A stretch of DNA of 64,000 bases, taken from positions 3,630 to 67,629 of the forward strand of contig MFKT01000001.1 of assembly GCA_001781125.1 (NCBI GenBank), written 5' to 3'. Source of the stretch: Candidatus Kaiserbacteria bacterium RIFCSPHIGHO2_01_FULL_53_29. Lineage in GTDB: Bacteria; Patescibacteriota; Minisyncoccia; Phycocordibacterales; UBA2100. The notes under the pieces were generated by a model. That model did no database searches. It was given only the letters and a program-made list of their open reading frames with translations, and was not told the DNA's origin. A program made the translations under genes and the position numbers. Shown piece after piece: positions 10,928-11,668 of the stretch (position 1 is the stretch's first letter; every line of letters starts with the position of its first letter).

Positions 10928-11176
10928 ATGGCAACAAAAGTCCAAAAATGGGGGAATAGTCTCGCAGTCAGGATCCCCGACAATGTCGTTGAAGATGCCG
11001 GACTTGTTCCAGGAAAAGAAGTAACCGTCAGAAACGTCCGCAATACGGTCGTTATCACTCCGGTGAACGCAAAAAGGCGCCCGACACTCGAAGAACTCGT
11101 CGCTCGCATAACTCCCGAGAATCGGCACGACTATCAGTGGGGGGGAGTCGAGCCCGTTGGGAAGGAAATATGGTGA
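10928..11176 (+). CDS. mazE: MazE/PemI-like antitoxin (SpoVT/AbrB fold)
   Basis: MATKVQKWGNSLAVRIPDNVVEDAGL... has the canonical KWGNSxAVRIP motif. It is 82 aa and overlaps the downstream toxin start. Confidence 0.8.
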   Translation: MATKVQKWGNSLAVRIPDNVVEDAGLVPGKEVTVRNVRNTVVITPVNAKRRPTLEELVARITPENRHDYQWGGVEPVGKEIW

Positions 11177-11523
11177 AGGAAGGGTCACCACGCTATGTGC
11201 CAAATCGTGGAGATATTATATGGATCCAATTTTCACAGCGCAGAGGGCATGAGCAGGGTGGGCGAAGGCCAGCCATCATTCTTTCCTCGAAACAGTTCAG
11301 CGAACGTACTTCTTTTATATTCTGCTGTCCGATTACTTCAAAGGTGAAAGGATACGTTTTTGAAGTTCCCATAGCGGCCGGCCGAATACGAGGTGCGGTA
11401 CTTGCTGATCAAGCCTACACGTTTGACTGGCAGGCTCGTCGCCCAACATACGCGGCCCGCGCACCCGAAGCGGTCGTATCAAAGGTGGGTGAGTTGATCT
11501 CGATCCTCGCCCAAGGCGCATAG
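11170..11523 (+). CDS. mazF: MazF/PemK-like endoribonuclease toxin
   Basis: MVKEGSPRYVPNRGDIIWIQFSQRRGHEQGGRRPAIILSS... fits the PemK/MazF family. The ATG at 11170 overlaps the mazE stop (ATGgTGA). Confidence 0.8.
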   Translation: MVKEGSPRYVPNRGDIIWIQFSQRRGHEQGGRRPAIILSSKQFSERTSFIFCCPITSKVKGYVFEVPIAAGRIRGAVLADQAYTFDWQARRPTYAARAPEAVVSKVGELISILAQGA

Positions 11524-11596
11524 TCCCACTTTCTAAGCCAAACCTACAGGCAAAAGATTTGACTTATCAAGTCATTTCCTATACATTATGCGGACT

Positions 11597-11619
11597 CCCG
11601 CGAAGGCGGGTTTAATTTT
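11597..11619 (+). terminator. Rho-independent terminator after mazF
   Basis: CCCGCGAAGGCGGG hairpin followed by TTTAATTTT. Confidence 0.55.
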
Positions 11620-11668
11620 GACTTGTATTCACTAACACCTAGAACCTAGTCCCTAGCACCTAGTTCAT

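Follow-up and report, generated by a model that had tools for sequence, protein, structure and literature searches.

Chromosomal mazEF toxin–antitoxin (TA) modules are known beside central housekeeping operons, in E. coli in the arrangement relA-mazEF and in S. aureus co-transcribed with the sigB operon (rsbUVW-sigB). Chromosomal TA loci usually turn over rapidly. The present analysis concerns a mazEF pair situated between the ribosomal protein genes rplB and rpsS in a 64,000-nucleotide stretch of DNA (64 kb, referred to as the window; contig MFKT01000001.1) from Candidatus Kaiserbacteria bacterium RIFCSPHIGHO2_01_FULL_53_29, a member of the candidate phyla radiation (CPR). As in relA-mazEF and mazEF-sigB, a chromosomal mazEF here adjoins a central housekeeping operon in the same orientation, with no strong terminator between, and read-through in either direction is plausible. 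The locus differs from both in that its neighbours are ribosomal protein genes and in that co-transcription is here a possibility. We consider it probable that the pair is an intact, autoregulated mazEF module, that it is old and occupies a junction that already existed, and that the hairpin downstream of it belongs to rpsS. The locus comprises the following features (nt, nucleotides).

10031-10873, plus strand: rplB (ribosomal protein L2), upstream neighbour; PF00181, PF03947
10894-10921, plus strand: mazEF promoter, TTGACA-16-nt spacer-TACAAT, 11 of 12 consensus positions
10912-10928, no strand: candidate palindromic operator, TAGATACA-A-TGTATCAA (also written TAGATACA-A-TGTATCTA)
10928-11176, plus strand: mazE, antitoxin of 82 amino acids with an AbrB/SpoVT-type DNA-binding N-terminal domain and a C-terminal toxin-binding tail; PF04014
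11160-11166, plus strand: GGAAGGA, Shine-Dalgarno-like motif for mazF, within the 3' end of mazE
11170-11523, plus strand: mazF, toxin of 117 amino acids, PemK/MazF endoribonuclease family; PF02452
11559-11587, plus strand: rpsS promoter-like site (consensus match), TTGACT-17-nt spacer-TACATT
11597-11619, plus strand: hairpin CCCGC-GAAG-GCGGG followed by TTTAATTTT (stem-loop 11597-11610, U-run 11611-11619)
11637-11664, plus strand: (ACCTAGN)n, 7-nt tandem repeat between the hairpin and the rpsS ATG (Tandem Repeats Finder)
11669-12016, plus strand: rpsS (ribosomal protein S19), downstream neighbour; PF00203

An earlier note on this DNA had described a canonical MazE/MazF pair with a 7-nt overlap, placed between rplB and rpsS, and each of these points is borne out. 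MazE matches PF04014 (E 2.4e-10, 40.6 bits against a cutoff of 24.7, residues 5-49) and MazF matches PF02452 (E 3e-22, 79.3 bits against a cutoff of 23.1, profile positions 2-106 of 109), both above the curated Pfam cutoffs, and Pfam likewise identifies the two flanking genes. The motif KWGNSLAVRIP is present in MazE, and the two open reading frames (ORFs) share the sequence ATGGTGA at 11170-11176. Against structures in the PDB, MazF matches 7d28 and 7dhp at about E 2e-26 (7d28 at E 1.7e-26) and the E. coli MazF structures 1ub4 and 5ck9 at about E 4e-22. MazE can be aligned over its whole length with the chains 7d2n_E, 1mvf_D (E. coli) and 1ub4_C (E. coli); 7d28 and 7d2n presumably represent the Deinococcus radiodurans MazEF-dr system. 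The alignment to all three chains includes the C-terminal tail (ITPEN...W..G...KE.W), in which the segment ITPENRHDYQWGGVEPVGKEIW pairs with a 21-residue stretch of E. coli MazE (1mvf_D/1ub4_C alignment). R33 (in GGRRPA) and T56 (in PITSKVKG) of MazF align by BLASTP with R29 (HRPA) and T52 (CTTQSKG) of E. coli MazF, the active-site arginine and threonine; the identity is 38% over 107 amino acids. An identical MazF stands in the public record as a hypothetical protein of Candidatus Kaiserbacteria bacterium RIFCSPLOWO2_12_FULL_53_8.

Judged from sequence, the pair is an intact E. coli-type (ChpA-like) type II mazEF module. Its organization is that of a TA operon, with the antitoxin gene upstream of the toxin gene, overlapping ORFs and a promoter of its own, and it resembles E. 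coli MazEF (ChpAI/ChpAK) in this gene order and overlap. It shares with the E. coli and 7d2n antitoxins the AbrB-type N-terminal domain and a tryptophan-containing C-terminal tail that aligns residue by residue. The equivalents of R29 and T52 are kept in the toxin, and a palindromic operator, here a candidate, overlaps the promoter in both systems. The module differs from its E. coli counterpart in that MazF has only 38% identity to the E. coli toxin, in that the mazE mRNA is predicted to be leaderless, in its location inside a ribosomal protein cluster, and in its host, an ultra-small CPR bacterium almost devoid of Shine-Dalgarno sites.

The mazEF promoter, which the earlier note did not mention, lies directly before mazE. 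Only 20 nt separate the rplB stop codon from its -35 box, and there is no hairpin or terminator-like site between them. The -10 box, the predicted transcription start and the opening base of the mazE ATG are all overlapped by the candidate operator, the putative binding site of MazE; such an arrangement is expected for autorepression by an AbrB-type antitoxin. When the region upstream of mazE was compared among the closest MazF homologues (64-87% identity) and their contigs, TTGAC and TGTAnATACAnTGTATCnATG proved invariant in seven diverged mazEF loci (MazF 64-78% identical), while the spacer between them varies. The ATG comes 6 nt after the end of the -10 box, and a leaderless mazE mRNA is therefore predicted from the promoter geometry. 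Shine-Dalgarno-like motifs precede just 4 of the 40 gene starts examined in the window, that of mazF being one of the four. In several genes a -10-like box stands 6-7 nt ahead of the ATG (e.g. 45812, 25588, 34204 on the minus strand), which suggests that leaderless mRNAs are common in this organism. Given the scarcity of Shine-Dalgarno motifs and the -10-like boxes close to start codons, leaderless starts and starts without a Shine-Dalgarno motif look normal for this genome.

Three further lineages have mazEF just downstream of rplB, with MazF 75-78% and MazE 80-85% identical to the proteins of the window. Their gene orders are:

L175: rplB and mazEF, again with 20 nt from stop codon to -35 box, followed by unrelated genes; rpsS is absent from the next 3.5 kb
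L165/L166: rplB, an ORF for a 155-amino-acid membrane protein, mazEF, then an SNF2 helicase gene on the opposite strand
L168-171: end of rplB, an opposite-strand SNF2 helicase gene, mazEF, an esterase gene and, further on, a PIN-domain gene

The differences between the window and L165, L175 or L171 were counted by the Nei-Gojobori method as non-synonymous (pN) and synonymous (pS) differences per site.

mazE: pN 0.08-0.11; pS 0.7-0.9, saturated
mazF: pN 0.13-0.16; pS 0.7-0.9, saturated
rplB: pN 0.19-0.23; pS 0.7-0.9, saturated

Since pS is saturated and pN is lower than in rplB, the mazEF copies diverged long ago and are more constrained than L2. Within the species, all 21 contigs that encode an identical S19 protein, from several samples, have a 798-nt spacer that is 100% identical, with mazEF intact. 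Assemblies ERZ4903055, ERZ28563803 and JGI 3300025317 are the sources of the matching contigs. By these comparisons the module is old at its position beside rplB rather than a fresh insertion, and it is evidently fixed in the population and under strong purifying selection. Gene tables for same-species contigs gave the impression that mazF had been lost or had become a pseudogene; this was rejected as a table artefact, the DNA being 100% identical and the ORF intact. When the rplB 3' end was examined for a recombination signal, namely unusual similarity among the lineages with mazEF, the C terminus of L2 was 84-92% identical in nearly all relatives, so that this region does not discriminate.

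The SNF2-family helicase, of about 1160 amino acids and 82-88% identical between lineages, lies near mazEF at the rplB junction of three Kaiserbacteria lineages. One of the three is L100, the closest relative by L2 (81% identity, partial match), which has rplB, the membrane protein ORF and the same SNF2 gene. The copies are located as follows.

L100, 1535-1978: SNF2 helicase gene
L165, 5385-8867: SNF2 helicase gene
L168, 482-4006: SNF2 helicase gene

PADLOC matched the L165 protein to generic SNF2 defence-helicase models only, which are not diagnostic. Further along, L168 has a PIN_3 gene and a SocA_Panacea-domain gene. Taken together, the SNF2, mazEF, PIN_3 and SocA_Panacea genes look like a small variable island.

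On the plus strand of the window the cluster runs rplC, rplD, rplW, rplB, mazE, mazF, rpsS, rplV, rpsC, rplP, rpmC, rpsQ, rplN, rplX and rplE, followed by an insert of about 1.2 kb and then rpsN, rpsH, rplF, rplR, rpsE, rplO and secY. The gap between rplB and rpsS is 795 nt and contains two promoter-like sites. In non-CPR loci this gap is at most 279 nt and usually 3-85 nt. In CPR relatives, which were gathered by scanning genome and metagenome collections with L2 and are a sample rather than a complete survey, it ranges from 27 nt to over 4000 nt. The two genes are near-adjacent in the close relatives L085 (27 nt; 77% L2 identity) and L086 (31 nt; 73%). The wide gaps of other CPR relatives hold ORFs for S12, L10 with L7/L12, a family 2 glycosyltransferase, diacylglycerol kinase, YkuD, dihydroorotate dehydrogenase, an IS200-like transposase and many hypothetical proteins; none of the ORFs in these gaps is a TA gene. 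Of 27 CPR relatives, 24 have a promoter-like pattern (TTGACN-16..18-TANNNT) no more than 200 nt before rpsS; among 117 non-CPR loci there is no such case.

With a promoter before rpsS in most relatives and unrelated genes at the junction, mazEF does not break an intact S10 operon. The rplB|rpsS junction is, as far as gene order and promoter matches tell, a transcription-unit and synteny boundary that already existed in this CPR clade. The claim that mazEF splits a conserved S10 transcription unit thus falls, the unit being already split in the clade. That the location is unusual holds for bacteria generally, in view of the short non-CPR gaps. Nor does the window contain a contiguous S10 operon of the order rpsJ-rplCDWB-rpsS-rplV-rpsC-rplP-rpmC-rpsQ, in which rpsJ comes first and rplB and rpsS are adjacent and co-transcribed. 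Both rpsJ and tuf are absent from all 64 kb, including the 8 kb upstream of rplC, and the cluster is therefore broken also at rpsJ|rplC. Where these genes would be expected (1-8072) there are ORFs without a Pfam match and a TPR protein (4687-5475). Another ORF (5472-7511) encodes a 679-amino-acid protein with cysteine-rich repeats and a signal-peptide-like N terminus. We found no literature report of a TA module in the S10 or spc clusters, or of the rplB-rpsS junction in CPR. The mazEF described here is a member of a well-known family in an unusual place, and its location is not unique within the clade.

The hairpin before rpsS had been read in the earlier note as a clean intrinsic terminator belonging to mazEF, with promoter-like TTGACT boxes following it. 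The hairpin and its U-run are present, as are the boxes, but neither the assignment nor the order stands. The hairpin begins 9 nt after the -10 box of the rpsS promoter, so that the promoter (box at 11559) precedes it, and the second TTGACT, at 11618, has no usable -10 box. Similarity between mazEF loci extends precisely to the mazF stop codon and no further, so that 11524-11668 is not part of the module. A position-anchored scan for a stem of at least 5 base pairs (bp) with at least three G-C pairs followed by a T-run detected such a hairpin 5-9 nt after the -10 box in 17 of the 24 CPR relatives with an rpsS promoter, against an expectation of 0.2 in shuffled controls, and none of these 17 carries mazEF. 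The position is kept while the stem has at least six different sequences (CCCGC/GCGGG, AGCTC/GAGCT, ACGCC/GGCGT, GAGCC/GGCTC, CCAGT/GCTGG and TTGCCG/CGGCAA). In most relatives the hairpin begins near +1 to +3, with the ATG 7-27 nt beyond it. Because it lies outside the mazEF homology block, follows the rpsS promoter and is conserved before rpsS in the absence of mazEF, the hairpin is assigned to rpsS, and we conclude that 11597-11619 is probably the 5'-terminal hairpin and U-tract of the rpsS leader rather than the terminator of mazEF.

The same arrangement is found before other genes. Across all CPR loci examined, 26 of 82 promoter-like matches carry a hairpin: 18 before rpsS (the window included), six before tuf, one before rpsN (in the window) and one for which no downstream ORF was found. 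The strict pattern occurs at two sites only in the window, upstream of rpsS and of rpsN, the second being:

16715-16772, plus strand: TTGACT-17-TATATT, hairpin GCCTC-GTAG-GGGGC, then CTTATTTTT, upstream of rpsN

We conclude that the hairpin and U-tract recur in this clade as a 5' leader feature of translation genes that are highly expressed. The leader hairpin may be a 5' stabiliser attached to a U-rich initiation region that lacks a Shine-Dalgarno motif, or else a promoter-proximal attenuator. The leaders of ompA in E. coli and of aprE and ermC in B. subtilis contain 5' stabiliser hairpins, and the S10 leader of E. coli contains an L4-controlled attenuator. The likeness to the former is that a highly expressed mRNA carries a stem-loop at its 5' end or close to it, and to the latter that a hairpin and U-run lie within the leader of a ribosomal protein operon. 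The present hairpins differ from all of these in being only 5-9 bp, in their start close to +1 and in the short distance to the ATG, and they have no Rfam match; Rfam gave none in 7500-20000, even at E <= 1. RNAalifold on a MAFFT alignment of the 17 leaders gave no structure, variable loop lengths putting the hairpins out of register. Between lineages the leader stems covary (Paceibacterota-like CPR genomes, rpsS and tuf upstream regions L005-L111). A similar hairpin, with UUUUUCAUUUU and an AUG, lies upstream of rplC (8101-8132).

Several points weigh against the reading of an old, autoregulated module followed by an rpsS leader. The promoter calls are consensus matches, and the consensus is that of E. 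coli sigma-70, which may not be that of the CPR host. PADLOC has no model that matches MazE or MazF. In a rough neighbour-joining tree of L2 the window groups with L085, L086, L005, L087 and L165, and mazEF is patchy in this nearest subclade, being absent from L085, L086, L005 and L087. Because of this patchy presence, vertical inheritance would need several losses, the alternative being repeated capture at one site. Saturation of synonymous sites precludes a precise comparison of age between mazEF and rplB. Finally, the terminator-shaped hairpin is the only terminator-like site from the mazF stop codon to rpsS. It may additionally halt read-through from rplB and mazEF, and so terminate both transcripts; leader and terminator roles are compatible.

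The last point leads to the best-surviving alternative, namely that the hairpin is mainly an intrinsic terminator ending an rplC-rplB-mazEF transcript and that its position after the rpsS promoter is incidental. Five G-C pairs, a 4-nt loop, the run TTTAATTTT and a folding energy of -9.9 kcal/mol fit a terminator, as does the lack of any other candidate in the interval. That energy, however, is ordinary for the composition of the hairpin (z = -1.36). The hairpin lies after the promoter rather than before it, and the relatives L009, L012 and L093 have a separate, larger terminator upstream of the promoter in addition to the small hairpin behind it. The recurrence of the hairpin at the same position in relatives that all lack mazEF, and of the same module before tuf and rpsN, also argues against this alternative, which we regard as possible though unlikely.

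Two further alternatives give the neighbourhood of rplB a function. The broader one holds that rplB-linked mazEF is a long-retained and selected part of the organization of the ribosomal cluster, that ribosomal protein read-through together with the autoregulated leaderless promoter ties the MazE:MazF balance to ribosome synthesis, and that the junction seeds a variable island (SNF2 helicase, PIN toxin and others). This is doubtful. The narrower one, which gives precise form to the potentially regulatory location of the earlier note and which we find improbable, proposes a regulatory coupling in which read-through from the ribosomal protein promoter feeds mazEF, so that the supply of labile antitoxin follows ribosome synthesis; lower transcription of ribosomal protein genes would then free MazF and stop translation, a growth-rate or starvation switch that would explain the kept position. 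Such coupling is consistent with the short, hairpin-free interval between rplB and the mazE -35 box, with the rplB linkage in four lineages despite differing downstream neighbours, with the stronger constraint on the TA proteins than on L2 at non-synonymous sites, and with the precedent of mazEF beside core regulatory operons (relA-mazEF and sigB). Against it, the strong and conserved promoter of the module, with its candidate operator, argues for independent control; the close relatives L085, L086, L005 and L087 manage without mazEF; and the more distant MazF homologues (64-69%, also 87% identity) lie in non-ribosomal contexts. Read-through cannot be essential, since an ORF (L165) or an opposite-strand SNF2 gene (L168) stands between rplB and mazEF in sister lineages.

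Although TA modules are mobile, related copies occur in unrelated contexts and the G+C content of mazEF (about 0.50-0.53) is slightly lower than that of the adjacent ribosomal protein genes, it is very improbable that mazEF is a selfish element newly inserted here or a functionless remnant in decay, given two intact ORFs with their catalytic residues, saturated pS and low pN relative to the rplB-linked homologues, a conserved candidate operator, identity across the 21 contigs examined and no inverted or direct repeats found flanking the module.

We therefore favour an intact, autoregulated mazEF at a pre-existing junction, and propose that it works as follows. MazF would act as a sequence-specific endoribonuclease that the MazE tail neutralises. 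MazE, alone or with MazF, would repress its own promoter at the conserved palindrome over the -10 box and start codon. The mazE mRNA would be leaderless, and mazF would be translated via the internal Shine-Dalgarno-like site and the 7-nt overlap. The module would sit at a permissive transcription-unit boundary, with rpsS driven by its own promoter, 5' hairpin and U-rich leader, and in sister lineages it would mark one edge of a variable island. It would persist most likely as a self-maintaining addiction module, the loss of which kills the cell, or as an abortive-infection defence against phage. Repression, leaderless start, ribonuclease activity and biological role are all predictions made from sequence.

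A second type II TA pair is encoded on the minus strand in the spc part of the cluster, within the insert between rplE and rpsN.

15687-16228, minus strand: second type II TA pair, relB-like antitoxin and yafQ-like toxin
15956-16228, minus strand: relB-like antitoxin; PF04221, E 1e-5
15687-15956, minus strand: yafQ-like toxin; PF15738, E 2.6e-10
16263->16236, minus strand: promoter of the pair, TTGACA-16-TATACT, 11 of 12 consensus positions, placed for a leaderless start

The pair and rplE are transcribed towards each other, with no spacer between them. PADLOC gave no match for the YafQ-like protein, the RelB-like protein or ORF130. Public gene calls for L001 list no minus-strand toxin gene at this site but an ORF on the opposite strand.

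Two kinds of intergenic element are interspersed among the ribosomal genes. The first, designated type A, is about 140 nt long and was found at five places.

9894-10033, plus strand: type A element
12019-12158, plus strand: type A element
14697-14836, plus strand: type A element
52728-52868, plus strand: type A element
L086 3153-3299, plus strand: type A element

The window copies each end in GGGTATG, of which the ATG is the start codon of rplB, rplV, rplX and a PG_binding-domain gene, respectively. The termini of type A form an imperfect inverted repeat of about 24 bp, in which copy 4 shows a single compensatory change, and TATG stands on either side of the element. Its folding energy is -42 to -46 kcal/mol (z -4.3 to -5.1), and Rfam has no match for it. 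In L086 it occupies a different junction, rplP/rpmC, and the element is thus probably mobile, resembling miniature inverted-repeat transposable elements (MITEs) or Correia elements. The likeness lies in the length, the imperfect terminal inverted repeat, the flanking TATG repeat, the intergenic location and the junction that differs between species; type A differs in that all of its copies point the same way and stop precisely within the start codon of the gene that follows. No transposase partner for type A was identified. A 35-codon ORF within the element is unlikely to be coding; the four copies of the window agree in its length, but the L086 copy has a disrupted frame.

The second element, type B, has conserved ends (AAGAAGATGTTATGA...GAATTACATATTCTTTA and GGGTGGAAGTTnTTGCTAA...TAAGCAAAACTAACCATG) and a variable centre, and likewise ends in the downstream ATG. 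In L086 its copies lie upstream of rplV, rplP and one further ORF.

17567-17770: type B element, between rpsH and rplF
L086 1287-1421: type B element
L086 2654-2732: type B element
L086 4160-4278: type B element

Short tandem repeats and a few other features complete the window. The (ACCTAGN)n repeat, with a period of 7 or 14 nt, occurs upstream of three start codons, and its rpsC copy overlaps the 3' end of rplV. The DUF4258 family is presumably one of putative toxins.

11637-11664: (ACCTAGN)n, upstream of rpsS
12582-12612: (ACCTAGN)n, upstream of rpsC
13335-13365: (ACCTAGN)n, upstream of rplP
14274-14304: (GCTACAA)n, upstream of rplN
17067-17102: 18-nt repeat in two copies, after rpsN
44039-44430, minus strand: tmRNA gene, 86.7 bits
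50233-50305: tRNA-Ile, anticodon TAT
54729-55031: DUF4258 protein; PF14076, E 5.6e-9

These observations suggest that the core ribosomal protein cluster, of all bacterial gene clusters the most conserved, is porous in one CPR lineage. It is broken at several places, the rplB|rpsS break being clade-wide, and two TA modules and two families of probably mobile intergenic elements lie among its essential genes. For annotation, and for operon calls in CPR genomes in particular, a small hairpin and U-run right after a consensus promoter should not automatically be taken as the terminator of the upstream gene. If the broader of the functional alternatives, with mazEF as a selected part of the cluster, were true, minimal-genome bacteria would have a built-in translation-shutdown or dormancy switch. 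As it stands, mazEF appears to have stayed beside rplB through a divergence that saturates synonymous sites while changing less than L2 at non-synonymous ones, which makes it a good case for asking why some TA loci persist.

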